This document shows, piece after piece, positions 3,384-52,884 of a stretch of DNA of 64,000 nucleotides. The notes beneath the pieces are model-generated. The model saw nothing but the letters and a program-made list of their open reading frames with translations. It did not search any database and had not been told where the DNA came from. Within the stretch, counting starts at the first letter, position 1. Every line of letters starts with the position of its first letter. The translations under genes and the position numbers were made by a program. The stretch comes from Thermoanaerobaculia bacterium (GTDB taxonomy: Bacteria > Acidobacteriota > Thermoanaerobaculia > Gp7-AA8): assembly GCA_035629395.1 (NCBI GenBank), contig DASPHZ010000030.1:25440-89439 (forward strand), read 5' to 3'.

Positions 3384-4946
3384 CTGCTCTTCCTGACGAA
3401 CGGAACGATCTGGACCGGCGACGGTTTCGCGCGCAGCGTGACCGTCGAAGGAAACCGGATATCCGCCGTCGACTGCGAAGCGCCCCACGGCGCAACCACC
3501 ATCGATCTGCGCGGCCGCCTCGCCGTCCCCGGCTTCATCGACAACCACGTCCACTTCATCGCCGGCTGCCTGCAGCTCTCCCGCGTCGATCTGCGCGCGG
3601 CGACGTCGCCGGACGATCTCGCGCAGCGCATCGCGAAACACGCCGCGTCGCTGCAGCGCGATCCATGGATCCTCGGCGGGGAATGGGACGAACAGCAGTG
3701 GACGCCCGTCGCACTGCCCACGCGCGCGCACGTCGACGCGATCGAGAACCCGGTCTTCGTCACGCGCATGGACATGCACATGGCGCTCGCGAACTCGCGC
3801 GCGCTGCAGCTCGCGGGCATCGACCGCAACACGCCCGATCCTCCGGGCGGCGCGATCGTGCGCGACGCGAACGGCGAGCCGACGGGCGTCCTCAAAGACA
3901 CCGCCATGAGCATCCTGCTCGCGGTCGTGCCGCCGCCGAGCGTCGAGGATCGCATCGCCGCCGCACGCGCGGGACTCGCGCTCGCGGCGAGCGTCGGCGT
4001 CACGTCGTTCTGCGACATGGGCATGCGTCCCGACGCGTTCGAGGACTTTCGTGCGTACCAGCGCCTCGATCGCGAAGGCGCGCTCACCGCGCGGGTCGCG
4101 CTCTACACGCCGATCAACCTGTACGAGCGCGTGCGCGACAGCGGCGTCGAGAAACGCTTCGGCAGCGAGCGTCTACGCATCGGCGGGCTCAAAGGCTTTT
4201 CCGACGGCTCCCTCGGCTCGTCGACCGCCGCCTTCTTCGAGCCGTACGAAGACGACTGCTCGCACTGCGGTCTGGTCATGGGCGAGATGGTCGACGGCTC
4301 GATGAAAGAACGCATCCTCGACGCGAACGCGCACGAAATGCAGCTCGCCATCCACGCCATCGGCGATCGCGCGAACGCGGACGTGCTCTCGATCTTCGAG
4401 TCGATCCCGGATCATCGGGAGCGCCGCTTCCGCGTCGAGCACGCGCAGCATCTCAATCCCGAGCTCGTGCAGCGCTTCGCGAAAGGCCGCTTCGTCGCGT
4501 CGATGCAGCCGCATCACGCCATCGACGACGGACGCTGGGCCGAGAAGAAGATCGGACCCGAGCGCGCAAAGTACACGTACGCGATCCGCTCGCTGCTCGA
4601 TGCCGGCGCGATCGTGACGTTCGGCTCAGACTGGACCGTCGCGCCGCTCAATCCCTTGCACACGATCTACGCGGCCGTCACGCGACGCACGCTCGACGGC
4701 AAGCACCCCGATGGCTGGATCCCCGAGCAGCGCATCACCGTGGAAGAAGCGCTGCGCTGCCACACCGTCAACAACGCCTGGGCCACGTTCGCGGAAAACG
4801 ACCACGGTCGCATCGCACCGGGCCTGCTGGCGGACATCGCCGTCCTGTCCGAAGACCTCTTCACCATCGCGCCGGAAACGATCCGGGATGTGCGGGTGGA
4901 TCTGACGATCTTCGATGGGCGAGTGGTGTACGAGGGGAGCTGTTGA
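3384..4946 (+). CDS. Amidohydrolase-family metal-dependent hydrolase (Amidohydro_3-like); start codon uncertain (CTG 3384 or GTG 3438)
   Basis: LTNGTIWTGDG...VPGFIDNHVHF...HAIGDRA...FGSDW motifs of the amidohydrolase superfamily. In the same frame as bfr, separated only by its TAA; no ATG before 3438. Confidence 0.75.
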   Translation: MLFLTNGTIWTGDGFARSVTVEGNRISAVDCEAPHGATTIDLRGRLAVPGFIDNHVHFIAGCLQLSRVDLRAATSPDDLAQRIAKHAASLQRDPWILGGEWDEQQWTPVALPTRAHVDAIENPVFVTRMDMHMALANSRALQLAGIDRNTPDPPGGAIVRDANGEPTGVLKDTAMSILLAVVPPPSVEDRIAAARAGLALAASVGVTSFCDMGMRPDAFEDFRAYQRLDREGALTARVALYTPINLYERVRDSGVEKRFGSERLRIGGLKGFSDGSLGSSTAAFFEPYEDDCSHCGLVMGEMVDGSMKERILDANAHEMQLAIHAIGDRANADVLSIFESIPDHRERRFRVEHAQHLNPELVQRFAKGRFVASMQPHHAIDDGRWAEKKIGPERAKYTYAIRSLLDAGAIVTFGSDWTVAPLNPLHTIYAAVTRRTLDGKHPDGWIPEQRITVEEALRCHTVNNAWATFAENDHGRIAPGLLADIAVLSEDLFTIAPETIRDVRVDLTIFDGRVVYEGSC

Positions 4947-5082
4947 GGGAGCTGTTGAGCTGTTGAGCCGTTGAGCTGTTGAGGCGGCATCTCGCAAGCT
5001 CAATAGCTCAATAGCTCAATAGCTCAATGGCTCAATAGCTCAATAGCTCAACGGCTCCCTCAACAGCTCCCTCAACAGCTCC
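4937..5082. repeat. Hairpin repeat element, (CTGTTGAG)n left arm / (CTCAATAG)n right arm, spanning exactly between the stop codons of two convergent genes
   Basis: ggagctgttgagggagctgttgagctgttgagccgttgagctgttgag-gcggcatctcgcaagc-tcaatagctcaatagctcaatagctcaatggctcaatagctcaatagctcaacggctccctcaacagctccctcaacagctcc. The stop TGA of the amidohydrolase lies inside the first unit. Confidence 0.85.
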
Positions 5083-5645
5083 TACCCTCCGGCAATCACG
5101 TCCAGCTCGTCCACGATCTCGTTGAGCGTGTGGTAACGCAGCTCGTCCGGGTTCGCGATCAATTCGTCGAGCGACGGCGTCTCGAATCCTGCGGCGGCGA
5201 GCTGACGCACGAGCGGGATGGCCTGCTCGCGCAACTCTTCCGGCGGATGCGGCAGCGGCCCGGGCTCCGTGCCTTCGGCGCGGAACTGCGCGCGTTCCAT
5301 CGCCCGTGCGCGCGCTTTCAGCTTCGTCTGCAGATCGCGGATCGTGCCGATGATCTCGTTCGGCAGCGCGGTCGCGTTGCGCAACGCGGCCGCGTCGTTC
5401 TGCAGCAGCGCGACGGCCGTGAAGACGGAGTCCGGCGCGCCCGCATCGTCGATCGCGGCGACGAGATCGTTCAGCGCGAACTCGATGTCGTTCACGCGCG
5501 CGGCATTCACGCCGTTCGTCTTCGCGGCGCTGACCGCATTCGCCAGCACGTCCGCGCTGATGCGGATCGCCAGCAGCGAGGGATCGTCGCCGAGCGCGGC
5601 GCGCAACTGAAACAGCGCCGCCTCCATCATCAGCAGCTCACTCAT
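5082..5645 (-). CDS. Hypothetical all-alpha protein, translationally coupled (ATGA overlap) downstream of SPFH gene
   Basis: Consistent GC3 bias; no recognisable motif. Confidence 0.55.
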
Positions 5646-8934: not shown

Positions 8935-9000
8935 GGTTGTCGGTTGTCCGTCGTCGGTTGTCTGTGATGCAGCGGCCGGCACAGACATCAGACGGCGGAC
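8935..9000. repeat. Imperfect hairpin repeat with (GGTTGTC)n-type left arm between permease start and FHA gene stop
   Basis: ggttgtcggttgtccgtcgtcggttgtctgtgatgcagcggccggcacagacatcagacggcggacgacatc. Confidence 0.6.
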
Positions 9001-9004
9001 GACA

Positions 9005-9613: not shown

Positions 9614-11297
9614 GAAGAGACTTCTCTGTGCCGCGGCACTGCTTTCGCTCGCCTGCACTTCGACCATGCCGACCACTGAATCGCAAAGCCACCTCGCCGC
9701 CAAACCCGACGTTCCGCAACGTCTCGCGCAACTGCCGAAGACGGTCATCGACTACGACCGCTCGCTTCTCGACGAGAACGAGCGCCGCGTCGTGCAGAAG
9801 CTGATCGAAGCGTCGAAGTTCATCGACGAGATCTACTGGCTGCAGGTGGCGGAGGAGAATCCGGAGTACCGCGCGCGCCTCGCGGCGCAGGCGAACAATT
9901 CGCCGCTCGACCGCGCCGCGTACGACTACTTCATGGCTCATCGCGGCCGGTACGACCGGCTGGCCGAGGATGAGCCTTTCATCGAGCCTTTCGACAAACA
10001 CAAGCCGGCGGGCGCGAACTTTTATCCCGCCGACATCACAAAGGAAGAGCTCGAGCGATACGTGGCCGCACATCCCGGCCAGAAGGAAGCACTGCAGGGA
10101 CTCTTCACCGTCGTGCGCCGCCAGGGCTCCGAGCTCGTGGCCATTCCGTATTCGCGTCAGTACGCGGACCTGCTCACGAAAGCCGCGGCATCGCTGCGCG
10201 AAGCGGCGGCGATCAGCGAAAACGCGTCGATGCGCGACTACCTGACGAAGCTCGCCGACGCGTTCTTCAAGGACAACTATCGCGAGAGCGACATGGCCTG
10301 GATGGATCTCGACGGACCGATCGAGGTGGTGATCGGACCGTACGAGGTCTACGAGGACAACCTCTTCAACTTCAAGGCGGCGTTCGAGTCGTTCGTGAAC
10401 GTGGTCGATCGCCCGGAGACGGAGAAGCTCTCCATCTACGCGCAGCATCTGCCGGCGATGGAGCGCAATCTGCCGATTCCGGACGAGCACAAGAACCCGA
10501 ATCGCGGCACCGAGTCGCCGATCCGCGTCGTGCAGGAGCTCTACACCGCCGGCGATGCGCGCCGGGGCGTGCAGACGGCCGCGTTCAATCTGCCGAACGA
10601 CGAATACGTGCGCGAAGTGAAGGGCTCGAAGAAGGTCCTGCTCAAGAACGTGATGGACGCGAAGTACCGCATGAGCGGCGCGCCGATCGCGAACCGCGTC
10701 CTCGAGCCGTCGCAGCGTGCACTGCTCAACTTCGACGCGTATTTCAACTTCGTGCTGTTCCACGAGCTCTCGCACGGCCTCGGGCCGGGTCTCATCACGC
10801 CCCCGGGCGGCGGCGAACGCACGGACGTGCGTCTGCTGCTGAAGGAAACGTATTCTTCGATCGAAGAGTGCAAGGCGGACGTCCTCGGCGTGTGGAACAT
10901 CCTCTACGCGATGCGCAACAACCTCCTCTCCTCGTTCAACGAGCAGCAGCTCTACGCGACGTACGCGGGCCTGCACTTCCGCTCGATGCGCTTCGGCATC
11001 GACGAGGCGCATGGCCGCGGCACGGCAGTGCAGTGGAACTGGCTGCGCGAGGGCGGCGCGATCGTGCCCGCGGCGGACGGGACGTTCTCGGTCGATTTCA
11101 CGAAGATGCGCACCGGCATCGAGTCGCTCGCGACCGAGCTGCTGATGATCGAGGCGACCGGCGATTACGCGCGGGCGCAGCGCTTGCTGGCAAAGTACGG
11201 CGTGTCGACGCCCGAGATCGAGTCGGTGACCGCGCGATTGAAGGACATCCCCGTCGACATCACGCCGGTGTTCCCGGCGGCGGGTGAGACGGAGTAG
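9612..11297 (+). CDS. M49-like (dipeptidyl-peptidase III family) zinc metallopeptidase, probable lipoprotein
   Basis: Signal peptide with lipobox LSLAC|T; zinc motifs HELSH (HEXXH) and EECKAD (compare DPP III EECRAE). Confidence 0.7.
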   Translation: MKRLLCAAALLSLACTSTMPTTESQSHLAAKPDVPQRLAQLPKTVIDYDRSLLDENERRVVQKLIEASKFIDEIYWLQVAEENPEYRARLAAQANNSPLDRAAYDYFMAHRGRYDRLAEDEPFIEPFDKHKPAGANFYPADITKEELERYVAAHPGQKEALQGLFTVVRRQGSELVAIPYSRQYADLLTKAAASLREAAAISENASMRDYLTKLADAFFKDNYRESDMAWMDLDGPIEVVIGPYEVYEDNLFNFKAAFESFVNVVDRPETEKLSIYAQHLPAMERNLPIPDEHKNPNRGTESPIRVVQELYTAGDARRGVQTAAFNLPNDEYVREVKGSKKVLLKNVMDAKYRMSGAPIANRVLEPSQRALLNFDAYFNFVLFHELSHGLGPGLITPPGGGERTDVRLLLKETYSSIEECKADVLGVWNILYAMRNNLLSSFNEQQLYATYAGLHFRSMRFGIDEAHGRGTAVQWNWLREGGAIVPAADGTFSVDFTKMRTGIESLATELLMIEATGDYARAQRLLAKYGVSTPEIESVTARLKDIPVDITPVFPAAGETE

Positions 11298-11300
11298 TCG

Positions 11301-11543
11301 ATGGAAGGACGCGTATTACTGAAGTGCGGTGAGTGCGAGCTCACTCGCGAGATCGTCGGCGAGATCCCGGAGGAGTTCACGAAGTGCTTCGATGACGCCG
11401 TCCATCAGGACGGCTGGGTGCCGCGCCCCGGCGCGAATTACTCGTCGCTCATCTGCCGCGACTGCCTCGTGAAGTACAGCGGCCACGAGACCGTGGACGA
11501 CGAGGAGAAGGTGCAGGGGCGGAAGGATCCGATGGAGCCGTGA
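11301..11543 (+). CDS. Small zinc-ribbon protein (CxxC...C...CxxC), hypothetical
   Basis: KCGECEL...KCF...CRDC; 4 nt after the upstream gene stop. Confidence 0.5.
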   Translation: MEGRVLLKCGECELTREIVGEIPEEFTKCFDDAVHQDGWVPRPGANYSSLICRDCLVKYSGHETVDDEEKVQGRKDPMEP

Positions 11544-11546
11544 ACG

Positions 11547-11625
11547 ATGTTGCCGGTTGTCGGTTGTCGGTTGTCGGTGCCGTCTCGCAAGGCAGCACAG
11601 ACAACTGACCGACAACCGACAACGG
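11547..11625. repeat. Hairpin repeat element, (GGTTGTC)n left arm / (CGACAAC)n right arm, between convergent genes
   Basis: ccggttgtcggttgtcggttgtcggtg-ccgtctcgcaaggcagcacagacaactga-ccgacaaccgacaacgg. Confidence 0.8.
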
Positions 11626-11629
11626 ACGT

Positions 11630-13522
11630 CTACGCGAGCTTCCGAATCGCTTCTTCCACCTGCTCCGCGGTCGGGACCACCGGCTGCACCAGCGATCCCT
11701 CGAGCCATTCGTACTCGCCCTTCATGAACTTCTGGACGACCTTGTACGCGAGCTCGTCGTGGTTATCGAAGAGCGTGCGGAAGTTCTGGTCGACGCGCAC
11801 GCGCGCTTCGCGGCAGAAGAGATCCGCCAGCTCGAGCGCGTTCTTGTCGCCCTTTTTCGCGAGCATCGTGGCGTAGCTGATCGTCGCCGACATCGCGAAG
11901 AGGTCCGTGCCGATGTCGACGATGCGGAACAGCACCATCTGCTTCCGCTCCAGCTTCGCCTGGAAGCGCATCATGGCGTGGAAGATCGAGCGCGAGAGAT
12001 GACGCGACTGGCGCTCGAGGTAGCCGACATGCGTCTGCAGGCGCCCGAACTCGGAATGTTTCGGGAAACGGCTCCACCCCACATAACGCGTCGGGTACCA
12101 GGTCGCGTAGAACGCGCCCGCCTTCGCGGCCGCGGAGAGCTTCTCGCCCGTCGGCGTCTCCGGCAGCAGGATCTTGTAGCCGCGCTTCATGTGCGGATCG
12201 ACCGCCTCGCGCGCGATGAAGAGATGCTGGATCTCGCTCGTCCCTTCGAAGATGCGGTTGATGCGCATGTCGCGCATGATCCGCTCGACCGGATGCGCCT
12301 TCTCGCCGCGCGCCTTGAGTGACGCCGACGTCTCGAATCCGCGTCCGCCGCGGATCTGCACGAGATGATCGACGCACTGCCACGCCACTTCCGTGTTGAA
12401 CAGCTTCGCCATCGCCGCTTCGAGGCGCAGGTCGACGTCGCCGCGATCGGCGAGGCCGGACGTCAGCCACACGATCGCTTCCATCGCCAGCGTGTGCGAG
12501 GCCATCCAGGCGATCTTCGACGCGACGCCTTCGTGCTTGCCGATCGCCGCGCCCCACTGCACGCGCTCGTTCGCCCACTCGCGTGCGATCTCGAGCATGC
12601 GGCGCGCGCCGGCCGCGCAGCCCGCGGGGATCGTGAGGCGTCCCGTGTTCAGCGTGATGAGCGCGAGCTTCAGGCCGAGGCCTTCACCCCAGAGGAGATT
12701 CTCTTTCGGGACGAAGACGTCCTTGAACTTGATCAGCACGTTGCCGATGCCGCGCAGGCCCATGAACTGGCAGCGGTGCGCGATCTCGACGCCCGGCGTG
12801 TCCATCTCCAGGATGAACGCGGAGATCTGCTTCTTCTCCTTGCCGTTCACGACCTTCGGCGGCGTCTGCGCCATGACCACGATGAGCTCGGCCTTGAGGC
12901 CGTTCGTGCACCACAGCTTCTCGCCGTTGAGGATCCATCCCTTGCCGTCCGGAGTGGGCGTCGCGCGCGTCTCCATCTTGGCGGGATCCGATCCGACGCC
13001 CGGTTCGGTGAGCGCGAACGCGGAGATCGCGCCGTTCGCCAGCCGCGGCAGGTACTTTTTCTTCTGCTCCTCGGTGCCGAAGAGCTTGAGCGGCTGCGGC
13101 ACGCCGATGGACTGATGCGCGGAGAGCCAGGCCACGCTCGACGCGCACCATGTCGCGACGAGGCCGATGGCGCGGTTGTAGTTCGTGGCGGAGAATCCGA
13201 GGCCGCCGTACTCCTTGGGGATCTTCATGCCCCAGGCGCCGAGCTTGTTGAAGCCTTCGAAGAGGCTGTAGTCGTACTCGCCCTTCGCGTCGATCTCCTC
13301 GGCGTCCACGTTCTCGGCGAGGAAGCGCTCGAGGTTCTGGAGGAACGGGTCCGCCTCGGCTTTGTCGGCCGCCGGCTGCTCGGGGAAGGGGTGGATCAGG
13401 TCGAGATTGAGCTTGCCGAGGAACAGATCGCCGACGAATGAGGGCTTTTCCCATTCGGTTTCGCGCGAGGCCTCGGCGACTTCCATCGCCTCGACGGCGC
13501 CCTGCGTTTTGACTTCCGCCAT
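11630..13522 (-). CDS. Acyl-CoA dehydrogenase family protein (long form with C-terminal extension)
   Basis: ACAD N-terminal, middle and C-terminal domain motifs (FALTEPGVGSD...WCTNG...RIFEGTSEIQ). Confidence 0.85.
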   Translation of the reverse strand: MAEVKTQGAVEAMEVAEASRETEWEKPSFVGDLFLGKLNLDLIHPFPEQPAADKAEADPFLQNLERFLAENVDAEEIDAKGEYDYSLFEGFNKLGAWGMKIPKEYGGLGFSATNYNRAIGLVATWCASSVAWLSAHQSIGVPQPLKLFGTEEQKKKYLPRLANGAISAFALTEPGVGSDPAKMETRATPTPDGKGWILNGEKLWCTNGLKAELIVVMAQTPPKVVNGKEKKQISAFILEMDTPGVEIAHRCQFMGLRGIGNVLIKFKDVFVPKENLLWGEGLGLKLALITLNTGRLTIPAGCAAGARRMLEIAREWANERVQWGAAIGKHEGVASKIAWMASHTLAMEAIVWLTSGLADRGDVDLRLEAAMAKLFNTEVAWQCVDHLVQIRGGRGFETSASLKARGEKAHPVERIMRDMRINRIFEGTSEIQHLFIAREAVDPHMKRGYKILLPETPTGEKLSAAAKAGAFYATWYPTRYVGWSRFPKHSEFGRLQTHVGYLERQSRHLSRSIFHAMMRFQAKLERKQMVLFRIVDIGTDLFAMSATISYATMLAKKGDKNALELADLFCREARVRVDQNFRTLFDNHDELAYKVVQKFMKGEYEWLEGSLVQPVVPTAEQVEEAIRKLA

Positions 13523-30925: not shown

Positions 30926-30953
30926 GCGGCGCGCGCCGCAGGGCAGAGGGTAG

Positions 30954-32339
<1,386 letters not shown>

Positions 32340-35216: not shown

Positions 35217-38200
35217 ATGAACGTCTCCGATCCCGCAGATCCGCTGTTGCCGGCTCCTCGCCGAGGACGGCGGAGGACTGCTCGGGAGCGGCAGCGCAAA
35301 GGCCCGATGTTCGGCTGCATCAAGGGCCTCATCTGGGTCTTCGGCGTCGGCTTTCTCGTGCTCCTCATCGGCATCGGCACGGGCTGGTTTCTCCTCGGCT
35401 CGACGAACTTCGCCGATTACGTCCGCAAGCGCATCGAGACCACACTCGAAACCCGTCTCGGACGTGAAGTCACGATCGGAAAAGTGATCTTCGTCCGCAC
35501 GCGCCCGCAGAAGATCATCCTCCAGAATCTGCGCATCGCGAACGCGCCCGGCGGTGCGGCGCCGCAGTTCGCACTCGTGCGCGAAGTCGAGCTCACCGGC
35601 GGCATCCAGTCGTTCTGGGGACGCGCGGTGCAGATCGATCGCATCGACATCCGCGATCCGCAGGTGTGGTTCGAGCTCCTTCCGAACGGTGAGCACAACT
35701 TCCCGAAGTGGAAGACGGGGCCGAAGCGCCGCTTCGAGATCGTGCGCGTCGACTTCCGTCATCTCTTCATCCGCGGCGGCGCGTTCAGCTTCAACGATCG
35801 CAAACACGAGATCGTCGCGGTCGCGCAGAAGATCGCTTCAGACATCACCGTCACTCGCGCCGAGGGGTTGTACGCGGGCCTCATGACCAGCCCGAACGTG
35901 CGCGTGAGCATCCAGGACTACCAGCCGTTCGACGTCACGATGCGCGGCGGCTTCCGCTACACGCCGGGCGTGCTCGCGCTGCAATCGATCGCGCTCGAAG
36001 GCCGCGGCATCCAGGCCTTCCTCACCGGCAAGCTCGATCCGCTCACCGAAGCCGTGTACGACCTCGGACTGCGGGCGCGCCTCGACCTCCCGCGCGTGAA
36101 AGAGATCTTCGCGGTCGAGCCCGTGCTCGAAGGGACGATCGCGCTCGACACGCGCCTCAAAGGAAAGGCCGGCGACTTTACGCTCGCGGGGGGCTGGACG
36201 GCGCCGAAGCTCGTCGCCGACGCGTACGAGCTCGCGAACGCGCGCGGCACGTTGAGCGTTACCGCCGACAACCTCACCATGGACGTGCAGCGCGCCGAAT
36301 ACGGCGGCGGCACGATCGGCGCGAACTACGTCCTCGCAAAGTACGCCGAGCCGTATCCGATGCGCGTCGATCTGCGCTACTACGGCATCTCCATCGAACA
36401 GCTCTTCAGCGACTGGGGCGTCGAAGGGACGGGCCTGCGCGCCGCGGCGACGGGCAATCTCGAGTACCGCTGGAACAAAGAGAAGATCCTCGAAGGCGCC
36501 GGCGAAGGCACCGCGCGGCTGGCGAAGAACGCGGTGGCGTTCTCGAATGCGCGCTACCCGATCGGCGTCACCGGCTCCACGGACTTTGCGCTGAACAACG
36601 GCGTCGTCACGTTCCGCCGCGCGGAGCTCGACACCGACGCGTCGCACATCAGCCTCACCGGCAACCTGAAGATCGAGGACGTCGTCACGGACCTGCGCAT
36701 GGCGATCCGCAGCACCGACTTTGCGGAGCTCGATCGCCTCGCGTTCAACTTCGCGCAATCCGCGGGCAAGAACGATTTCGAGCTGCTCGGATTCGGCGGC
36801 GCGGGCACGATCACCGGCACCGTCAAAGGTCCGATCGAAACGCCGCAGGTCGTCGCTCAGGTGAACGGCTCGCAGGTGCGCTACAGCGAAGTGCTCCTCG
36901 GCGACGCCGACATCGCGCTGCGCTACGACGGCAATCGTTCCACGCTCACGTTCGATCGCGCGATTTTCGTCGACGCCGGCGGACGCCTCACGCTCACCGG
37001 CACGATCGAGTTCCCCGATCGCGGACCCGGTCCCGTGTTCGACATCGCCGTCGAAGCGAACGGCTATCCCGCGCAGCGCGCGATCGACGCGGTCGGACTC
37101 GATCTGAAGATCGGACCGGGCCTGGCGACGGGACGGATGGTCGTCGCCGGCACACCGGAGCAGGGACGCGCGACGTTCGCGGGACTCACCGTCCGCCGCA
37201 ACGACGCCACGCTCGCACTCAACGGCACCATCAACTGGCTGCCGGGCGAAGGCAACGTCGCGTTCGACCTCGACATCGCCGCGACGAACTTCCCCGTGGC
37301 CGACATCGCCGCGTTCCTCGACTTTGCGGACATCCCCATCACGGGCGATCTCACCGGCACGCTGAAGATCGCGGGCCGCAAGGAATCGCTCGAAGGCTCC
37401 GGACGCGTGACCATCGCGCGCGGCGCGGTGATGGGTGAGCCGGTCGATCTCGCGTCGGCGGACATCGTCTTCAGCGAGGGACGCATGCGTGCGACGAATG
37501 TGCTCGTGCGCGCGGCGGCGGGCGAGGTCCGCGGCGAAGCGGAGATCGATCTCGCGAACGAGCGTTTCAGCTACACGATCTCCTCGGCCGCGCTCGATCT
37601 GTCGCGCCTGCAGTTGCTGCAGGGCATGCAGGACCTCTTCGGCGGACGACTCGTGCTCCGCTCGACCGGCGCCGGCACGTTCGAACAGCCGGAGCTCGTG
37701 ATCGAAGCGACGCTGGAAGAAGGGACGCTGCGCGGACTGACGCTGCCCGCGGGCTCCGCGCCGCCGTCGCTCTATCTCGCCATCCGCAACGGTCGCCTGA
37801 TCATCCGCGGCTCCGTCGCGGACATCGTCTCCATCGAAGGCGAAGGGCTCGTCGGCGAGAACCTCGCGGTCGACGGCAACGTGCGCATCGTCATCGCCGA
37901 CATCGCGGGCGCCATGGCCATGGCGCCCGCAACCGCTTCGTTCCCCGCATCCGGCAACATGACGATCGACGTGCGCCTCGGCGGCAGGCTCACGCCGATC
38001 GAAGCGCTCGTCGCCGAAGTCACCGCACCCGTCTTCAACCTTCGCTTTGCCGATCACGAGCTCACGCCCGCGGAGCCGCTGCGCATCTCGCTGCGCAACG
38101 GACGGCTGTCATTCGACTCTTTCGTCGTGCGCCGTCCCGACTCCGAGTTCGCCGTCACCGGCTTCGCGGAGATCACCGGCAACAAACAACTCGACGTCGA

Positions 38201-41200
38201 CGTGCGCGGACGCGCGAACGCCGCGCTCGTGCAGCTCTTCGCGCCCGATATCCGCGCCGAGGGATACGCGAATCTCTCGATCGGCGTGGATGGGACTTTG
38301 AGCGCGCCGCGCGTCCTCGGATCCGCGGAGCTCGTCGACGCGCAGGTGAAGTTCGCGGGATTCCCGCAACTGATCGACGAGATCAACGGCACGCTGCAAT
38401 TCCGCGGCGACCGCATCGAGATCGAATCGGTGCGGGCAACCCTCGGCGGCGGCACCGTCGTCGCGGGCGGCGCGATCGCGCTCAACGGCACGACCCCGCG
38501 CAGCGCGCGCATCACCCTGCAGGGCAACGACGTCGCGTTGCGTTACTACGAAGGGCTCACGCTCGAAGGCAACTTCACGCTGCTGCTCACGGGCGACATG
38601 GATCGCGGCCTGCTGCAGGGCGACATCGACGTCACCCGCGCGCGCTACTTCCGCGACTTCGACATCCAGCAGGCGCTGCTCAACGTCCTCCTCGCGCGCA
38701 ACCGCGTGACGCCGGTGAGCGCGGCCACGTGGCAGGAGCGCGTCGGCCTGCGCCTGCATCTCTCCGCGCCGGGCACGCTCGCGGTCGAGAACAACATCGC
38801 AGACGTCACCGGCAGCGCGGAGCTCGACGTGAACGGCACGATCGCGGCGCCGGTGATCATCGGCGAGGTCACGCTCGACGAAGGCGGCACCGTCACGATC
38901 CAGAACGTCGACTACCGCGTCGCGCGCGGCACCATCGCGTTCCAGAATCCGTTCCGCATCGATCCCTTCTTCGACGTCACCATCGAAGGCACCGTCTCCG
39001 GCTTCGGGTCGTCGGAGACCGAAGGCGGCCCATACGAAGTGAGCGTGAATCTCACCGGTACGCTCGATCGCCTCACGCCGACGGTCACGAGCGATCCTCC
39101 CGCCAGCGACATCACGCTCTTCTCCATCCTCGGCTTCGGCGCACTCGGAAGCCGCCAGCCCGGACAGCAGGCGAGCGGCGTCGGGTTGCTCGGCCAGTCG
39201 CTGCTCTACCAGAGCCTCAGCTCCTTCATCGGCTCGACGGTCTTCCCGTTCGTCGACTCGTTCGCGTACGACCCGGGCACGCTCGACGCGAGCACCGGCG
39301 CGGGCCCGCGCGTAACGTTTGAAAAGCGGCTCTCGAATCGCGTGCGCTTCCTCGTCGTCTACAACCTCGAAGACCAGCGCAGCCGTCAGGTCATCGAGTG
39401 GCTCGTCAATCCGACGTGGACGCTGCAGCTCACGCGCGACGAGGAAGACGAGTACCGCCTCGACGCGCGCTTCCGCCGCCGCTACGAAGCGCACTGGCAG
39501 TGGGGCGACGACGATCGCGCCACGAACATCGCCACGTCGTCGAGTGTAGGGACAGGCGCGGTGCCCGTCGCCACACCGGCTCCGGCATTGACGCTCGTCA
39601 ACACGCGCGCGGCCGACGACCGCCCCATCGCGCGCATCGATTTCCGCGCCGACGCCGGATTCGACACGAACGCGGTCGCGCAGGAAGTGACGCTCGCGCC
39701 GGGCGAAGTGGTGACCATCCGCGAGCTGCAGTCGTCGATCAAGAATCTCTTCGCCACCGGCAACTTCCGCGACGTACGCGTCGACTCCACGCCCGGACCG
39801 GACGGCGTCGTCCTCACGTTCTCGCTCTTCCTGCATTACCGCATCGGCGCCATCGAAGTCGCGGGCGTCGAACGCGGCGACCGCACGCGCGCGCAGCGCG
39901 AGCTCACCGTGCGCGCGGGCGAAGTGCTCTCCCTCGACGACGTCGACGACAGTGCGTCCGCCATCGAAGAGACGCTGCAACAGCACGGCTATCTCGAGGC
40001 GGTCGTCGATCCCGAGACGAACTTCGACCGCGCGCGCAACGTGGCCGACGTCACGTTCCACGTCACGCCGGGACCGCAGGCCACGATCGCGAGCGTGATC
40101 CTCGAAGGCAACACCGCGCCGTTCACGACGGACGACCTCCTCGAGCGCATGAGCCGCCGCGCGGGACGCACGTTCAGCCTCCCCGACGCGCGCGAGGATG
40201 CGGACCGCATCCAGAACTTCCTCGTGCGCCGCAATCACCGCCGCGCCGACGTCGACTTCCTCGGCCACACCTACGACGAAGCGACGCACGGCGTCACGTT
40301 GCGCTATCGCGTGCAGGTGGGACCCACCGTGCAGGTCGCGGTGAGCGGCGTACCGCGAAGCATGGTCCGCCGCTGGCTGCCGTTCGCGCGCAACCAGGAG
40401 TACAGCGAAGACGTCGTCGAGCGCGCCGCGGACCGCATCACCGAGGGGCTGCAGGAGCGCGGCTACTTCCTCGCGACCGTCGACACCGAGAGCTCGCTCG
40501 AGAACAACGTCTGGACGACGACGTTCCACGTCGATCCGGGTGTGCAGTACCGCCTGCAGGAAGTCCGCTTCAGCGGCAACGCGAAGATCGAGGACGGCGA
40601 GCTCGAAGGCGTCGTGGCCACCAATCCGCGCGGCGGCTTCCGCGGCTTCGTCGCGCGCCTCTTCCGCCGCCCGACCGGCGTCACGCGCACGCAGCTCTCC
40701 GACGACCGCGACTCCGTCGAATCGTTCTATCGCCTGCAGGGCTTCTCGCAGGCGACCGTCGGCGAGCCGATCGCGCAGACGCGCGCCGACCAGACGCTCG
40801 TCGTCGACTTCCCGATCACGGAAGGGCCGCAAACGCTGCTCGCCTCGGTCCGTCTCGAAGGGGTGCAACCGGATCACGTCGACGAGATGCCGAACCTGCA
40901 ACTGCGTCCCGGCGAGCCGCTCAATCCGCAGCTCCTCAACGAAGACGTCATCACGCTGCAGACGTTCTACGCGAACCGCGGCCATGTCGAAGTGCAGGTC
41001 TCGCCGCGCGTCGACACGACGGAGGATCAGACGACGGCGACGCTCGTTTACGTGATCGCGGAAGGGCCGCAGGTGAACGTCGACGAGATCACCGTGCGCG
41101 GCAACACGTACACCGATCGCGACGTCGTGCTGCGCCGGTCGGGCCTGGAGGCGGGACGTCCGTTCAGCTACACGTCGATGCTCGAAGCGCAGCGCGAGCT

Positions 41201-42428
41201 CTATCGCCTCGGCATCTTCCAGCGCGTGGAGGTGCAGCCGACGCAGACCGACACGACGGTCGGCGATCGCGACGTCGTCATCCAGGTCGAGGAAGGCCGC
41301 AACCTCACCGTCACCGGTTCGGTCGGTATCCGCGCCGAGCGCGGCACCAACGTCGGCAGCGGCCTCGAAGTGCACGAGCGGATCGCGGCCGCGGTCGCGC
41401 ATCGCAACCTCTTCGGCACCGGCCGCTACCTCGGCCTCGAAGGCGTCTACAGCCGCGAAGAGCAGGAAGCGTTCATCACGTACCGCGAACCGTTCGTCGG
41501 CCGCTGGAACGTGCCCGTGCAGTTGCAGATCTTCCAGTCCGACGACACGACGCGCGGCGCGACCCAGATCCTGCAGAAGGGACTGTCGGTCGAGGCCTCA
41601 CGCGTGGCGCGCCTGCAGACGCGCTGGTCGCTGCGGTACGAGTACAAGATCTCGACGTGCGAAGGCGGCGAGCTGTGCGACGACATCAAGGACGGCGTGA
41701 TCGTCGAGAACCTCGACCGCTCGCTGCTCGACATCCAGATCTCCTCGATCGCACCGACGTTCTTCTGGGACCGCCGCGACGACATCATCGATCCGCACCG
41801 CGGCTTCTTCGCCAGCGCCTCGGTCGAGTACGCGTTCCCGCTGTTCTCCGCCTCGGCCGGATTCACGAAGGAGTTTGTGCAGGGCGCGTATTACATCCCG
41901 CTCACCGAGCGCACGGTGATCGCGCTGTCGGGACGGGCCGGTTTCATCCAGCGTTACGCGAAGCGCTTCGACGAAGACCTCGGACGCGACGTGCTGCGCG
42001 ACACGCCGCTGTCGGAGCGCTTCACCGCCGGCGGCGAGACGACGCATCGCGCGTTCGCGCTGGATCGCCTCGGCGATCCGTGCATGGAGAGGAAGGACGC
42101 GCCGGTCGACGAGACGTGCTCGCGCACGCTGCGCTACGACCCCGACACGGGACGCATCCAGCCGCTCGGCGGCAACGCGCTGCTGCTGTTCAACGCGGAG
42201 TACCGCTTCCCGATCTTCGGCACGCTCGGCGGCGCGGCGTTCGTCGACATCGGCAACGTCTTCCCCGACAGCACGGTGCGCTTCAACGAGCTCCGTTACG
42301 GAGGCGGCCTCGGACTGCGCTACCTCTCGCCAGTAGGTCCGCTGCGGTTCGACGTGGCGATGCCGTACCGGCGCAGATGGTACGAGGACCGCGTGCAGTT
42401 CTTCTTCTCCCTCGGATACGCGTTCTGA
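35217..42428 (+). CDS. Giant fusion protein: TamB/AsmA-like (N-terminal TM anchor through DUF490-like C-terminal region, about aa 1-1420) fused to POTRA repeats plus Omp85/BamA-TamA-type beta-barrel (about aa 1460-2403)
   Basis: Single uninterrupted ORF with coherent GC3 throughout. N-terminal TM (LIWVFGVGFLVLLIGIG) and long beta-rich AsmA/TamB-like region ending in a DUF490-like segment (...VNLTGTLDRLTPTVTSDPPASDITLFSILGFG...VTFEKRLSNRVRFLVVYNLED...WTLQLTRDEEDEYRLDARFRRRYE). Linker, POTRA-like modules (IARIDFRADAGFDTNAVAQEVTLAPGEVVTIRELQSSIKNLFATGNFRDVRVD...), and Omp85 barrel ending ...GGNALLLFNAEYRFPIFGTLGGAAFVDIGNVF...LRYLSPVGPLRFDVAMPY...FFFSLGYAF. Confidence 0.75.
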   Translation: MNVSDPADPLLPAPRRGRRRTARERQRKGPMFGCIKGLIWVFGVGFLVLLIGIGTGWFLLGSTNFADYVRKRIETTLETRLGREVTIGKVIFVRTRPQKIILQNLRIANAPGGAAPQFALVREVELTGGIQSFWGRAVQIDRIDIRDPQVWFELLPNGEHNFPKWKTGPKRRFEIVRVDFRHLFIRGGAFSFNDRKHEIVAVAQKIASDITVTRAEGLYAGLMTSPNVRVSIQDYQPFDVTMRGGFRYTPGVLALQSIALEGRGIQAFLTGKLDPLTEAVYDLGLRARLDLPRVKEIFAVEPVLEGTIALDTRLKGKAGDFTLAGGWTAPKLVADAYELANARGTLSVTADNLTMDVQRAEYGGGTIGANYVLAKYAEPYPMRVDLRYYGISIEQLFSDWGVEGTGLRAAATGNLEYRWNKEKILEGAGEGTARLAKNAVAFSNARYPIGVTGSTDFALNNGVVTFRRAELDTDASHISLTGNLKIEDVVTDLRMAIRSTDFAELDRLAFNFAQSAGKNDFELLGFGGAGTITGTVKGPIETPQVVAQVNGSQVRYSEVLLGDADIALRYDGNRSTLTFDRAIFVDAGGRLTLTGTIEFPDRGPGPVFDIAVEANGYPAQRAIDAVGLDLKIGPGLATGRMVVAGTPEQGRATFAGLTVRRNDATLALNGTINWLPGEGNVAFDLDIAATNFPVADIAAFLDFADIPITGDLTGTLKIAGRKESLEGSGRVTIARGAVMGEPVDLASADIVFSEGRMRATNVLVRAAAGEVRGEAEIDLANERFSYTISSAALDLSRLQLLQGMQDLFGGRLVLRSTGAGTFEQPELVIEATLEEGTLRGLTLPAGSAPPSLYLAIRNGRLIIRGSVADIVSIEGEGLVGENLAVDGNVRIVIADIAGAMAMAPATASFPASGNMTIDVRLGGRLTPIEALVAEVTAPVFNLRFADHELTPAEPLRISLRNGRLSFDSFVVRRPDSEFAVTGFAEITGNKQLDVDVRGRANAALVQLFAPDIRAEGYANLSIGVDGTLSAPRVLGSAELVDAQVKFAGFPQLIDEINGTLQFRGDRIEIESVRATLGGGTVVAGGAIALNGTTPRSARITLQGNDVALRYYEGLTLEGNFTLLLTGDMDRGLLQGDIDVTRARYFRDFDIQQALLNVLLARNRVTPVSAATWQERVGLRLHLSAPGTLAVENNIADVTGSAELDVNGTIAAPVIIGEVTLDEGGTVTIQNVDYRVARGTIAFQNPFRIDPFFDVTIEGTVSGFGSSETEGGPYEVSVNLTGTLDRLTPTVTSDPPASDITLFSILGFGALGSRQPGQQASGVGLLGQSLLYQSLSSFIGSTVFPFVDSFAYDPGTLDASTGAGPRVTFEKRLSNRVRFLVVYNLEDQRSRQVIEWLVNPTWTLQLTRDEEDEYRLDARFRRRYEAHWQWGDDDRATNIATSSSVGTGAVPVATPAPALTLVNTRAADDRPIARIDFRADAGFDTNAVAQEVTLAPGEVVTIRELQSSIKNLFATGNFRDVRVDSTPGPDGVVLTFSLFLHYRIGAIEVAGVERGDRTRAQRELTVRAGEVLSLDDVDDSASAIEETLQQHGYLEAVVDPETNFDRARNVADVTFHVTPGPQATIASVILEGNTAPFTTDDLLERMSRRAGRTFSLPDAREDADRIQNFLVRRNHRRADVDFLGHTYDEATHGVTLRYRVQVGPTVQVAVSGVPRSMVRRWLPFARNQEYSEDVVERAADRITEGLQERGYFLATVDTESSLENNVWTTTFHVDPGVQYRLQEVRFSGNAKIEDGELEGVVATNPRGGFRGFVARLFRRPTGVTRTQLSDDRDSVESFYRLQGFSQATVGEPIAQTRADQTLVVDFPITEGPQTLLASVRLEGVQPDHVDEMPNLQLRPGEPLNPQLLNEDVITLQTFYANRGHVEVQVSPRVDTTEDQTTATLVYVIAEGPQVNVDEITVRGNTYTDRDVVLRRSGLEAGRPFSYTSMLEAQRELYRLGIFQRVEVQPTQTDTTVGDRDVVIQVEEGRNLTVTGSVGIRAERGTNVGSGLEVHERIAAAVAHRNLFGTGRYLGLEGVYSREEQEAFITYREPFVGRWNVPVQLQIFQSDDTTRGATQILQKGLSVEASRVARLQTRWSLRYEYKISTCEGGELCDDIKDGVIVENLDRSLLDIQISSIAPTFFWDRRDDIIDPHRGFFASASVEYAFPLFSASAGFTKEFVQGAYYIPLTERTVIALSGRAGFIQRYAKRFDEDLGRDVLRDTPLSERFTAGGETTHRAFALDRLGDPCMERKDAPVDETCSRTLRYDPDTGRIQPLGGNALLLFNAEYRFPIFGTLGGAAFVDIGNVFPDSTVRFNELRYGGGLGLRYLSPVGPLRFDVAMPYRRRWYEDRVQFFFSLGYAF

Positions 42429-42448
42429 GGCGCCTGCGGTGCGGAGCT

Positions 42449-42681
42449 GGTTACTGGTGCGATGTCGGTTGCTGGCGCGTTGCTGGTTGTTGGTTGCTTG
42501 TCAGTCCGCGACGTAGCGCCCAGCCGATGCCTGATACACGCTCCAGCGCCTGCGGCGCGTTGTCCGTCGCCCGCAATGCCAAGCGTGTCGCCCAGGCGCT
42601 GCCTCACAAGCAACCAGGAACCAGCAACCAGCAACTGAAGCGGCCCGCGCGCGCAACCAGCAACGGCCGCGGAACCGCGGC
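42449..42681. repeat. Long hairpin repeat element, (GGTTGCT)n-type left arm / (AGCAACC)n right arm with about 130-nt loop, between convergent genes
   Basis: ggttactggtgcgatgtcggttgctggcgcgttgctggttgttggttgcttg ... caagcaaccaggaaccagcaaccagcaac ... gcaaccagcaacggccgcggaaccgcggcc. Confidence 0.75.
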
Positions 42682-44674: not shown

Positions 44675-44689
44675 CGTTTTTTCGTTCGA

Positions 44690-44720
44690 GGTGCGGCCGT
44701 TCCCGGCCGCACCTTTCTTT
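44690..44720 (+). terminator. Rho-independent terminator
   Basis: ggtgcggccg-ttcc-cggccgcacc followed by tttcttt. Confidence 0.8.
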
Positions 44721-48221: not shown

Positions 48222-48278
48222 GTGGGTTCCTCGTGCACGGCGTCATTCTGCGGCGCGCAGACACCGAAGGATCTCGAG

Positions 48279-48297
48279 CGACGCAACGGTTGCGTCG
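48279..48297. promoter_or_regulatory. Perfect 9-1-9 palindrome CGACGCAAC-G-GTTGCGTCG in fur-FTR1 spacer
   Basis: Read directly; function unknown. Confidence 0.3.
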
Positions 48298-48360
48298 AGC
48301 GAGACCGTTCGCCGTCTGCGCGGCTCAGGGTGACGGGAGCGTGCCTGGTGTGGGATGCGC

Positions 48361-48874: not shown

Positions 48875-48890
48875 TTGAGACGCCGTCTCA
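48875..48890. promoter_or_regulatory. Palindrome TTGAGACG-C-CGTCTCA 14-30 nt upstream of fur start codon; candidate autoregulatory operator
   Basis: Same core as the bfd upstream palindrome (2616-2632). Confidence 0.45.
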
Positions 48891-48929
48891 GTTGGCGAGA
48901 GTGTAGCGGGGGGAGGGGGGTGGGTCAAG

Positions 48930-49056
48930 GGAGCTGTTGAGCTGTTGAGCTGTTGAGCCGCTGAGCTGTTGAGCCGTTGAGCTGTTGAGTCGCTGAGCGG
49001 AGGGGCCGGGGGAGCTCAATGGCTCAATAGCTCAACGGCTCAATTAGCGAACAGCT
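48930..49056. repeat. Second copy of (CTGTTGAG)n / (CTCAATAG)n hairpin repeat element, same orientation as copy at 4937-5082
   Basis: ggagctgttgagctgttgagctgttgagccgctgagctgttgagccgttgagctgttgagtcgctgagcgg-aggggccgggggag-ctcaatggctcaatagctcaacggctcaattagcgaacagctccc. Overlaps the 3' end/stop of the GyrI-like gene. Confidence 0.85.
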
Positions 49057-49523
49057 CCCACCACCGGCAGGTACACATCCGTCACCATCTCCTCCTCGCG
49101 CACGTTCGGGCCGACGTTCACGTAGTGGAAGAAGATGGGAAAGTCGGCGAGGCGCTCGCCGCTTTGCGGGAGCCAGACTTCGGCGAGATAGCGCGCGGTC
49201 GTGTTGTTTTCGCGGGAGCCGAGGTGGCGGGCTTTGGCGCAGCGCAGGGCGGGGATGCGTTTGTTGATCACGCCTTGCGGATTCGGCGGGACGTCGGCGT
49301 CGACGGCGATCGCGAAATCGACGCGATGCTCCTCGGGCGCGGTTTTCGCGGGATCGGTGTAGTGGATGCCGTACGTCTTGTAGCGATCGGGCGGATAGCC
49401 GTTCTGGATGCGCCACTGGATCAGGCGGCGCGCCGTCTCGTGCTCGAGCTCCGGCGCGCCGCGATGTTCCACGGCGGCGATCTTCGTTTCGGGAAACGCG
49501 ACGATTTCGACGGCGATCGTCAT
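49044..49523 (-). CDS. GyrI-like small-molecule-binding domain protein
   Basis: About 159 aa; start ATG overlaps upstream gene stop (TGATG). Confidence 0.55.
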   Translation of the reverse strand: MTIAVEIVAFPETKIAAVEHRGAPELEHETARRLIQWRIQNGYPPDRYKTYGIHYTDPAKTAPEEHRVDFAIAVDADVPPNPQGVINKRIPALRCAKARHLGSRENNTTARYLAEVWLPQSGERLADFPIFFHYVNVGPNVREEEMVTDVYLPVVGAVR

Positions 49524-51954: not shown

Positions 51955-52066
51955 TGCCAGATGGTTGCTGGTGGTTGGTTGCTGGTTGGTAGTTACTGGT
52001 TGCTCGGGATTTGCCCTGAGCCGAAAGCTCACGAGCAACCAGGAACCAGCAACGAGTAACCAGCAA
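51955..52066. repeat. Hairpin repeat element, (GGTTGCT)n left arm / (AGCAACC)n right arm
   Basis: ggttgccagatggttgctggtggttggttgctggttggtagttactggttgctcg-ggatttgccctgagccgaaagctcacg-agcaaccaggaaccagcaacgagtaaccagcaac. Confidence 0.8.
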
Positions 52067-52783
52067 CTACTTCCGCCGCTTCACCAACTGCTTCACCTCA
52101 TCGTTCCCGATCGCGCTCTGCGCGGAAATGATGACCGCCGCGGTGCCGTCGCGGAAGGCGGGGATGGTGCAGCGCACGGTCGCCGTTCCGTCCGCCGCGG
52201 TCTTGCCGCGGAAGATGACGCGCGGCGGTTCCACGGTCGAGATCACTTTCACCTCGATCGCGGCCGCGGGGATCGGTGCCTGGGAGAGGCTCTTGCGGGC
52301 GGCGACGCGCATTTCGATCGGGGCGCCGGCGAAGAAGTCGACCACGTTGAGGAGCGCGAGCTCGAGATGCTCGCTCTCGGCTTCCGAGGCGAGGTAGTCG
52401 ATGATGACCTGATCGAGGGTCTTCTCCTCGTCGATCGCCACCGGTGCCGCCGCGGCTTCCTCGAACACCACGCCCGAGTCCTGCGTGAGCGTCGGCATCG
52501 ACGGGCGCGGCGAGGCTTTCGTCGTATCGGCGGGCTGATCGAAGCGGCCGCGTTTGATGGCCGCGATCATGGTCCGGTGCTGCTGCTCCATGAGGCCGCC
52601 GATCCATTTGTCGTCGACGCCCGTCTTGAGCTGCTCCGCGTACGAAGTCTTCTTCGACGCGAGGATCTCGCCACCCACGTACACGAGCGACTCGATGTAG
52701 GGATTCCCTACACCTTTGTCCTCGGTCTGCACGTGGTAGACCTTCTCGTTGTGCTTGATGTCTGTATTGAAGCCGGTGATCAC
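52067..52783 (-). CDS. Hypothetical protein
   Basis: Good GC3 bias; MITGFNTDIKHNEKVYHVQTEDKGVGNPYIESLVYVGGEIL N-terminus, no motif recognised. Confidence 0.55.
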   Translation of the reverse strand: MITGFNTDIKHNEKVYHVQTEDKGVGNPYIESLVYVGGEILASKKTSYAEQLKTGVDDKWIGGLMEQQHRTMIAAIKRGRFDQPADTTKASPRPSMPTLTQDSGVVFEEAAAAPVAIDEEKTLDQVIIDYLASEAESEHLELALLNVVDFFAGAPIEMRVAARKSLSQAPIPAAAIEVKVISTVEPPRVIFRGKTAADGTATVRCTIPAFRDGTAAVIISAQSAIGNDEVKQLVKRRK

Positions 52784-52802
52784 GGGGTGAGCGAATGGTA
52801 TC

Positions 52803-52884
52803 AGAGGGCTGAGGGGCGAGGGCCGGCCGCTGAGGGAGAAAGGGCGCAGAACCCTTCGGCCCTCGGCCCTCTGCCCTCGGCCCT
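52803..52884. repeat. Hairpin repeat element, (GAGGGCY)n left arm / (CGGCCCT)n right arm
   Basis: cagagggctgaggggcgagggccggccgctgagggag-aaagggcgcagaaccctt-cggccctcggccctctgccctcggccc; same unit as the 30941-31005 element. Confidence 0.7.

Follow-up and report, generated by a model that had tools for sequence, protein, structure and literature searches.

Repetitive extragenic palindromes (REPs) and bacterial interspersed mosaic elements (BIMEs) of Enterobacteria and Pseudomonas are extragenic imperfect palindromes that occur many times per genome, after stop codons or between convergent genes, as single units, tandem arrays or mosaics, and whose transcribed hairpins protect the upstream mRNA. 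REPs are 20-40 nt in length, carry a conserved 5' GTAG and are tied to RAYT transposases, and BIMEs bind IHF and gyrase. For the elements described here, the closest precedent comes from Xanthomonas campestris and X. citri, in which arrays of a GGGAATC heptamer face each other in inverted orientation: each genome contains 70-75 convergent pairs of these arrays, approximately 90% of them intergenic, which show a strong tendency to adjoin the upstream open reading frame (ORF) at its stop codon or to overlap that codon, are able to form a stem-loop, present the G-rich strand as the sense strand after the stop, and vary in length and sequence between close relatives (Rehm et al., 2015, PMC4692102). 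Two further groups of repeats, the short tandemly repeated repetitive (STRR) heptamers of cyanobacteria and the TAACTGA repeats of the Beggiatoaceae, are almost all one-sided direct arrays found mostly upstream of start codons, with only one inverted case reported in the Beggiatoa genome (PMC4679880). The present analysis concerns a 64-kb stretch (the window) of a metagenome contig from the Thermoanaerobaculia (phylum Acidobacteriota, soil; homologues of its 187-aa and Fur proteins are named as belonging to the same class, and the 187-aa protein places the window on contig k141_872186, 126,863 bp, of ENA assembly ERZ27257310), in which long hairpins are built of tandem 8-nt units. On balance, these octamer elements and the related hairpins around them probably represent a dispersed, slippage-prone, REP/BIME-like palindromic microsatellite that is specific to the lineage, and in which a 3'-end barrier or insulator function, if there is one, would be secondary.

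The element takes the form of a long hairpin whose arms, (GAGCTGTT)n and (AGCTCAAY)n, consist of tandem 8-nt units, a description first offered by an annotation made from the sequence alone (hereafter the first-pass annotation) and confirmed here by Tandem Repeats Finder (TRF), which delimited the arrays, by an inverted-repeat finder, which delimited the arms, and by RNA folding with z-scores calculated against shuffles. For copy 1, TRF resolves GGGAGCTGTTGA (2.1 copies, 4935-4959) and GAGCTGTT (4.4 copies, 4949-4983) on one side of the loop and AGCTCAAT (6.9 copies, 4997-5051) and CTCAACAGCTCC (3.0 copies, 5047-5082) on the other, while the inverted-repeat finder returns arms of 49 nt that are 88% complementary together with a perfect 24-nt outer pair. 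The arms are unequal, comprising roughly five versus nine units rather than the five to six and six to seven originally counted, and many CTCAATAG units are left unpaired. Folding is very favourable for RNA of the plus strand (-102.6 kcal/mol, z = -13.4) and of the minus strand (-98.3 kcal/mol, z = -11.4), and the 10-mer GCTGTTGAGC, with at most one mismatch, occurs 36 times as compared with 5.2 +/- 2.2 times in shuffles. The fit of copy 1 between its neighbours is as exact as had been claimed: the TGA (4944-4946) of the amidohydrolase ORF (3438-4946) lies within the first unit, and the last base of the element is also the first base of the TAG (5082-5084) of the convergent 187-aa ORF (5082-5645, minus strand). 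As a separate observation, the loops of copy 1 (4987-4995) and of the GGTTGTC hairpin at 11549-11627 (11587-11595), which belong to two different unit families, have the 9-mer TCTCGCAAG in common, the chance of which is estimated at roughly 5e-4 for two 20-nt loops.

Copy 2 is constructed in the same manner, with 8-nt arrays flanking its loop at 48931-48998 and 49013-49057 and RNA folding energies of -89.1 kcal/mol (z = -8.5) on the plus strand and -73.4 kcal/mol (z = -8.6) on the minus strand. Here the proposed placement between convergent stop codons, which stands for copy 1, does not hold, as two minus-strand genes flank the element; the reported overlap with the end of the GyrI-like gene does, positions 49044-49058 encoding its four C-terminal residues (GAVR) and its TAA on the minus strand. 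On its other side copy 2 ends one base short of the -35 hexamer (48923-48928) of a promoter-like site for fur (TTGACC-17-TACACT, minus strand, 48928-48900), the sole promoter-like site in the region. The element therefore fills every dispensable base between essential features, an arrangement that could have arisen either by insertion into a spacer of zero length or by growth halted at the flanks by purifying selection. The fragment pair seen by the first-pass annotation in the array at 62298-62760 likewise proves real: when 62295-62760 is folded, (GAGCTGTTGAG)n pairs with (CTCAAYAGC)n to form the outer arms of an interrupted third copy, which enclose two inner hairpins (Table 1). The unit of these inner hairpins, GAGCTGTAGAG, differs from the outer unit of copy 3 by one base, and both their family (GAGCTGTAGAG/GCTATAGAG) and the GCTGTAGAG family, which is present at 62.3 kb in the window, recur upstream of fur in the relative L153.

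Table 1. Positions in the window, units and surroundings of the tandem-unit hairpins and their parts
Feature	Position	Units or sequence	Context
Copy 1, 5' arm	4935-4983	GGGAGCTGTTGA x2, then GAGCTGTT/GAGCCGTT octamers	Holds amidohydrolase TGA, 4944-4946
Copy 1, loop	4984-4996	GCGGCATCTCGCA	
Copy 1, 3' arm	4997-5082	AGCTCAAT/AGCTCAAC octamers x7, then CTCAACAGCTCC x3	
Copy 2, fur-proximal arm	48929-48998	GGGAGCTGTT, then about 8 octamers (GAGCTGTT/GAGCCGTT/GAGCCGCT)	
Copy 2, loop	48999-49012	G/C-rich	Not related to copy 1 loop
Copy 2, GyrI-proximal arm	49013-49059	AGCTCAAT/AGCTCAAC units and one irregular unit	
Copy 3, outer 5' arm	62309-62342	GAGCTGTTGAG units	Nested composite
Two inner hairpins	62359-62592	Related GAGCTGTAGAG/GCTATAGAG family and spacers, 136-bp period	
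Copy 3, outer 3' arm	62618-62655	CTCAAYAGC units	Partner of 62309-62342
Third, degenerate hairpin	62655-62745	GCTGTAGAG-type	
Heptamer hairpin	8935-9003	(GGTTGTC)n/(GACRxC)n	Fills gap between two minus-strand genes
Heptamer hairpin	11549-11627	(GGTTGTC)n/(GACAACC)n	Fills 86-nt gap; convergent stops 11543 and 11630
Degenerate hairpin	30937-31030	(AGAGGGC/GAGGGCC)n	Directly past rhodanese gene stop
Hairpin, large loop	42446-42660	(GGTTGCT)n/(AGCAACC)n	Past stop of 2404-aa TamB-like gene
Hairpin	51955-52070	(TGGTTGC)n/(AGCAACC)n	Between two minus-strand genes
Hairpin	52803-52886	(GAGGGCY)n/(RGCCCTC)n	Begins at TAA of upstream minus-strand gene

The octamer copies belong to a broader class. The window holds at least nine tandem-unit hairpins of at least four unit families, and together with related loci it yields 44 such hairpins in 19 unit families with periods of 7, 8 and 9 nt, those of the related loci including hairpins of ATAGGACCT, GGTATGA, GGTGCCTC, AGGATTG, GATGAGA, GGTTCCTCG, CCAGTTG and GGCGTCG units. 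TRF arrays that pair with their own reverse complements lie at 4935-5082, 11549-11627, 42479-42635, 48931-49044 and 51962-52067. In a set of 28 tandem-unit hairpins from Thermoanaerobaculia loci, most lie -12 to +20 nt from stop codons; the gene contexts of this set, taken from a caller based on GC content at third codon positions (GC3), are approximate. Whichever strand is read, the arm encountered first is G+T-rich and the second C+A-rich in 17 of the 18 non-tied unit families (p = 1.4e-4, for families that are not fully independent). Candidate reasons for this polarity are that only the G/T/A-rich arm can provide stop codons, that it avoids exposing C-rich RNA resembling a Rho-loading (rut) site, and that a G-rich non-template strand favours pausing.

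Beyond the window, the two-armed octamer form is concentrated in a single Thermoanaerobaculia metagenome-assembled genome (MAG), SMAG_U3429, where it occupies at least 12 contigs with the architecture (CAGCTGYT)n (GAGCTRTT)n GAGCGAGAAGTG-loop-CTTCYTCGCTC (AAYAGCTC)n (AGCAGCTG)n. The non-repetitive core of this family, GAGCGAGAAGTG...CTTCYTCGCTC, is conserved among copies on different contigs, indicating dispersal by copying. When one genome per species was scanned for three consecutive GAGCYRTT units, matches were found in many phyla, nearly all of them one-sided arrays, and such matches outside the Thermoanaerobaculia say nothing about the hairpin form. A viral origin was considered and rejected, a scan of IMG/VR for the two-arm pattern having given 0 matches.

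How the elements came to occupy their positions can be judged from orthologous loci, which were compared with the window by blastn on the copy 1 side (L105, L106, L109, L110 and L111) and on the fur side (L153, L154 and L155), and in which the alignments break exactly at the elements. The 147 nt of window 4935-5081 correspond to 2 nt in L105 and L106 (187-aa protein 89% identical), where the stop codons overlap as CTAG; L111 (90%) has no element, the overlap of its two genes being 17 nt. The same junction holds a spacer with two copies of the unrelated palindrome GACGGCCGCCCTCGGCCGTC in L110 (88%; L110 6565-6686) and a 1.1-kb array of GCCGGCTTCCAGCCGGC palindromes with a period of approximately 240 bp in L109 (79%; 10562-11727), both of which are further REP-like families of the lineage. 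These alignments show copy 1 to be a 147-nt insertion at a site where, in its closest syntenic relatives, the convergent stop codons overlap. A second empty site is seen at 52803, where L153, L154 and L155 have no more than 10-16 nt in place of window 52794-52885.

Comparison with relatives also reveals that the flanking proteins have been altered. The amidohydrolase, which ends ..DGRVIYER-stop in relatives, ends ..DGRVVYEGSC-stop in the window, with GSC and the stop read from the element, and the GyrI-like protein, which ends ..YLPL[x]-stop in relatives (two residues after YLP), ends ..YLPVVGAVR-stop in the window, with GAVR and the stop read from copy 2. The exact placement at stop codons therefore arises because the element overwrote the gene ends and itself supplies the stop. 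Whichever of the three frames is read, (GAGCTGTT)n offers a TGA within 24 nt; the complementary arm is without stop codons.

Several other junctions hold a palindrome in most lineages, but not the same one. At 8935 the window carries (GGTTGTC)n, L109 carries (GGTGCCTC)n and L105 carries five tandem REP-like hairpins; at 51955 four lineages have four different sequences, of which three are tandem-unit hairpins (window, L153 and L154) and one, that of L155, consists of direct repeats; and at 42446 another long hairpin is found in both L153 and L154, such that a long hairpin is present in all three lineages. The gene whose stop directly precedes this last hairpin (ORF 35217-42428, approximately 2404 aa) has orthologues with TamB, DUF748, POTRA and Omp85 Pfam matches. 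The orthologous hairpin of 37 pairs that L153 and L154 carry at the 42446 site differs by four compensatory and two wobble changes with no pair broken, a pattern that, together with the retention of hairpins at some junctions despite full replacement of their sequence, could result either from selection on pairing or from template switching within the palindrome. Unit number and order also differ between two samples: in L002, a contig of another sample that encodes the identical 187-aa protein, 12 or more octamers stand in another order at the place where the window has 7, and 32-nt higher-order blocks are seen, although exact unit counts may be unreliable with contigs (L002, L112, L157 and L158) that end within elements.

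The site immediately upstream of the conserved fur promoter is occupied by the GCTGTTGAG hairpin in the window and by a GCTGTAGAG hairpin in L153, while neither L154 nor L155 has one there. In addition, the fur promoter-like site and a perfect palindrome downstream of it, TGAGAC-N3-GTCTCA (48876-48890, minus strand), are both conserved upstream of fur in L153, L154 and L155, and the palindrome is a candidate autoregulatory operator for a Fur-family repressor. The slot between an 802-aa TPR/sulfatase-like gene and fur (window 49044-49520; L153 9328-9813; L154 9174-9931; L155 9926-10001) holds a different small gene in each lineage, namely a GyrI-like gene, a gene for a 161-aa unknown protein, a DinB-like gene plus a 94-aa gene, or nothing; of the three lineages in which it is occupied, two have a tandem-unit hairpin after the cassette gene. 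A second, non-tandem family of REP-like palindromes, GTCATCCCGAGCG...GGATC...CGCGGCTCGGGATGAC, is represented by one copy in the window (48241-48335, between the FTR1 and fur genes), by one in L153 (4585-4758), which sits inside the loop of a hairpin of (CCAGTTG)n units, and by five tandem copies in L105 (2576-3139), where they are annotated as a 187-aa protein. The L105 "187-aa gene", which had seemed to take the place of the 8935 hairpin, was accordingly rejected as a paralogue of the 187-aa gene of the window, being a mis-called array of five REP-like hairpins.

Taken together, the sequence comparisons place the elements at the few dispensable bases of gene ends, where they arrive or arise and overwrite the last codons of the flanking gene while the G/T-rich arm gives a new stop; they vary in unit number between samples, and can nest within or beside one another. 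We suggest that the arms expand and contract by replication slippage, which in the octamer family may be aided by the self-complementary AGCT of each unit through mini-hairpins between neighbouring units, and that arm complementarity would be kept by intra-palindrome template switching, by selection on pairing, or by both. Growth would halt at essential sequence, whether stop codons or the fur -35 box. Transcribed as an mRNA tail from either side, the element would fold into a very stable hairpin with no strand specificity, and could then act, like REP/BIME, as a barrier to 3' exonucleases or as an insulator against read-through; such a barrier role would be a side effect, sometimes perhaps co-opted, and not the reason for the element's existence.

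Several findings weigh against the proposal of a dispersed microsatellite. Firstly, no transposase, integrase or RAYT was found by Pfam among 19 window proteins and the calls of syntenic loci, and Y1_Tnp in particular gave no match there. Secondly, the filled and empty sites at 4935 and 52803 reveal neither a target-site duplication nor a common target that would point to how new copies arise. Thirdly, the part common to copies 1-3 comprises only the octamers and a GGGAGC/GCTCCC clamp, with no loop core; a core shared with the SMAG_U3429 family was sought by comparison and is absent, and the three window copies may have originated independently in situ. Additionally, the gene calls at the SMAG_U3429 loci come from the crude GC3-based caller, and the hairpins retained at 42446 (3/3 lineages) and 51955 (3/4), as well as the compensatory changes, also fit a selected structure. 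The dispersed-microsatellite proposal is ranked above a primarily selected terminator or insulator, which is considered below.

Measured against the systems introduced above, the elements resemble the Xanthomonas GGGAATC pairs in having two convergent short-unit arrays within one intergenic region, next to or overlapping stop codons, and in following the same strand rule, with a G+T-rich 5' arm in 17/18 families. They differ in their 8-nt period (7 and 9 nt also occurring), in the many unrelated units within one genome, in being nested and in some cases built around a shared non-repeat core, and in belonging to the phylum Acidobacteriota; furthermore, the GAGCTGTT, GGTTGTC and GGTTGCT units lack the GGG runs that only the GAGGGCC family here possesses, and the GAGCTGTT unit is without quadruplex potential. 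Comparison with the features of REP/BIME supports the earlier description of a REP-like extragenic palindrome built of tandem octamers and distinct from the classical elements: the hairpins are extragenic, numerous (at least nine in 64 kb and at least 12 contigs of SMAG_U3429) and arrayed or nested at 62298-62760, whereas they are palindromes of 70-150 nt made of tandem units, no RAYT is seen in the scanned proteins, and the 5' flanks (GGTAG, CGAGG, GGTG and TCAAG) have nothing in common and no consistent GTAG. Like them, the STRR heptamers and TAACTGA repeats are intergenic, abundant and lineage-specific, and consist of 7-nt units in tandem (PMC4679880). Miniature inverted-repeat transposable elements, or MITEs, with internal minisatellites, known from Porphyromonas gingivalis (PMC4596501), and Correia-type elements are similarly small, palindromic and non-autonomous; they insert at gene ends, where they may provide a stop codon, and their repeat number varies, and the elements here are likewise present or absent at orthologous sites. 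In the present case, however, the repeats are the arms themselves, there are no terminal inverted repeats related to insertion sequences (IS) apart from the units, and the lack of target-site duplication at 4935 and 52803 sets the elements outside the MITEs. The novelty here lies in units of 8 nt, in the presence of many unit families side by side within one lineage, in the nesting, in the co-evolution of the arms, and in a documented insertion where stop codons overlapped, with the donation of C-termini.

Intrinsic terminators are similar to the elements in that a stable, G+C-containing hairpin directly follows a stop codon, and a tentative alternative, which we judge rather unlikely although the strongest competitor, is that the elements are selected bidirectional terminators, 3'-end stabilisers or insulators in which pairing is kept while sequence drifts and the units are a by-product of slippage. 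The location of most copies within 0-20 nt of stop codons, the strong folding on both strands (z = -8.5 to -13), the lack of enrichment of canonical hairpin-plus-U terminators in the window (12 versus 11.7 expected), the long hairpins of changed sequence at 42446 and 51955, and the four compensatory changes without a broken pair between L153 and L154 all accord with such a function. Less easily reconciled with it is that no U-tract follows either arm on either strand, that the scan for canonical terminators gave none at the elements, and that stems of approximately 50 pairs, about five times the usual length, far exceed the needs of termination. The closest relatives, moreover, do without a hairpin at the copy 1 and 52803 junctions, the stops at the former overlapping, and several convergent junctions of the window overlap or are without strong structure. 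Canonical terminators are used by the genome elsewhere (for example, 44689-44719), and three SMAG_U3429 copies adjoin ordinary terminators composed of a GC hairpin and a T run, indicating that the elements are not needed for termination there. An intrinsic terminator located between convergent genes at 44675-44719, which reads AGGTGCGGCCG-TTCC-CGGCCGCACCT followed by TTTCTTTC, indicates that the lineage uses canonical terminators at some junctions.

An improbable possibility, and one that touches on origin as well as function, is that self-complementary microsatellites are seeded and grown at stop codons in Thermoanaerobaculia independently of any transposase, with the G/T-first polarity reflecting a shared terminator or insulator function. 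Seeding would in that case proceed by hairpin-primed or template-switch synthesis from tiny palindromes, such as the AGC/GCT of overlapping stops. If true, the elements would constitute a new class of 'grown' regulatory structure, evolvable, U-tract-independent and bidirectional, and not ordinary selfish DNA.

Less probable still is a role at the level of DNA, in which the units form a protein-binding array or the palindrome serves as a cruciform or recombination hot spot that drives the turnover of gene cassettes. The variable gene content of the slot adjoining copy 2, the hairpin that follows the cassette gene in 2/3 occupied lineages, and the very favourable folding of single-stranded DNA (-57.7 kcal/mol, z = -11.8) are in keeping with this idea, but the unit sequences number at least 19, are unrelated and have periods of 7, 8 or 9 nt, which disfavours a single sequence-specific binder, and an 8-nt period is out of step with the helical repeat of DNA. 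Integron attC sites, whose consensus has RYYYAAC at the 5' end and GTTRRRY at the 3' end, were considered and rejected: the octamer units fit both consensus strings but with the polarity reversed, the 5' arm carrying GTTGAGC and the 3' arm GCTCAAC, no match is seen for the heptamer families, and no integrase lies nearby among the scanned proteins and Pfam calls.

The first-pass annotation had interpreted the asymmetry between strands as the sign of an RNA element or small RNA produced from the plus strand, with G.U pairs tolerated there only, and this interpretation we now hold to be very doubtful. The pairing itself was correctly described, for in register GCTGTTGAG against CTCAATAGC gives G.U on the plus strand and A.C on the minus strand; the plus strand is the more wobble-tolerant in all three octamer copies, and it is the more stable in copies 1 and 2 (by 4.3 and 15.7 kcal/mol). 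Three of three copies on one strand has, however, a two-sided chance of p = 0.25, the gain in copy 1 amounts to only about 4 kcal/mol of 100, and the preference does not extend to the family. Across the 28 hairpins the minimum free energy (MFE) of the plus strand minus that of the minus strand spans -18 to +17 kcal/mol, and the favoured strand is arbitrary with respect to gene direction, the sense strand being favoured in 5 and the antisense strand in 8 co-directional contexts (G.U pairs, 35 sense versus 41 antisense); in the octamer family alone, plus is favoured in 7 and minus in 6. In SMAG_U3429 both the G and the A unit variants are present in both arms, and loops differ between copies. 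Copy 2 is antisense to both of its neighbours, no plus-strand promoter-like site was found, and its position, with the GyrI-like stop on one side and the fur promoter-like site on the other, implies that the likely transcript is the weaker strand, that with the A.C mismatches. Nor did Rfam identify a family, with 0 matches at the gathering score in the whole window and, at an E-value threshold on copies 1 and 2, only generic sub-threshold matches to miRNA-precursor hairpins on both strands. The C-to-T change of copy 1 sits in the arm with approximately four surplus units, and amplification of one mutated unit by slippage accounts for the units of that surplus arm; a leading-strand C-to-T bias, considered as a cause of the plus-strand preference of the three copies, receives no support from the GC skew of the window (-0.014 on the plus strand).

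That an assembler of short metagenomic reads (k = 141) created the elements as artefacts at a low-complexity palindrome is hardly credible. Contigs from other samples (L002, L112, L157 and L158) do stop inside elements, palindromes of this type being ones that break short-read assemblies, but copy 2 is matched base for base by L112, a contig from an independent JGI metagenome, and by L158, from a second ENA sample, although each terminates within it, and is therefore real sequence; the same architecture is found again in many independent MAGs and assemblies, and every single arm is shorter than the read length.

These findings indicate that palindromic microsatellites are not limited to the GGGAATC arrays of Xanthomonas, and that a whole class of them exists in a poorly studied soil lineage. 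Within that lineage the elements remodel gene ends by providing new C-termini and stop codons, directly adjoin promoters, and mark junctions at which gene content turns over. They also carry a risk for annotation, as related REP-like arrays can be mis-called as genes, the L105 "187-aa gene" being a case in point. Together, the filled and empty sites, the compensatory changes in the arms and the G/T-first polarity offer handles on the origin and upkeep of inverted simple sequence repeat (SSR) arrays.

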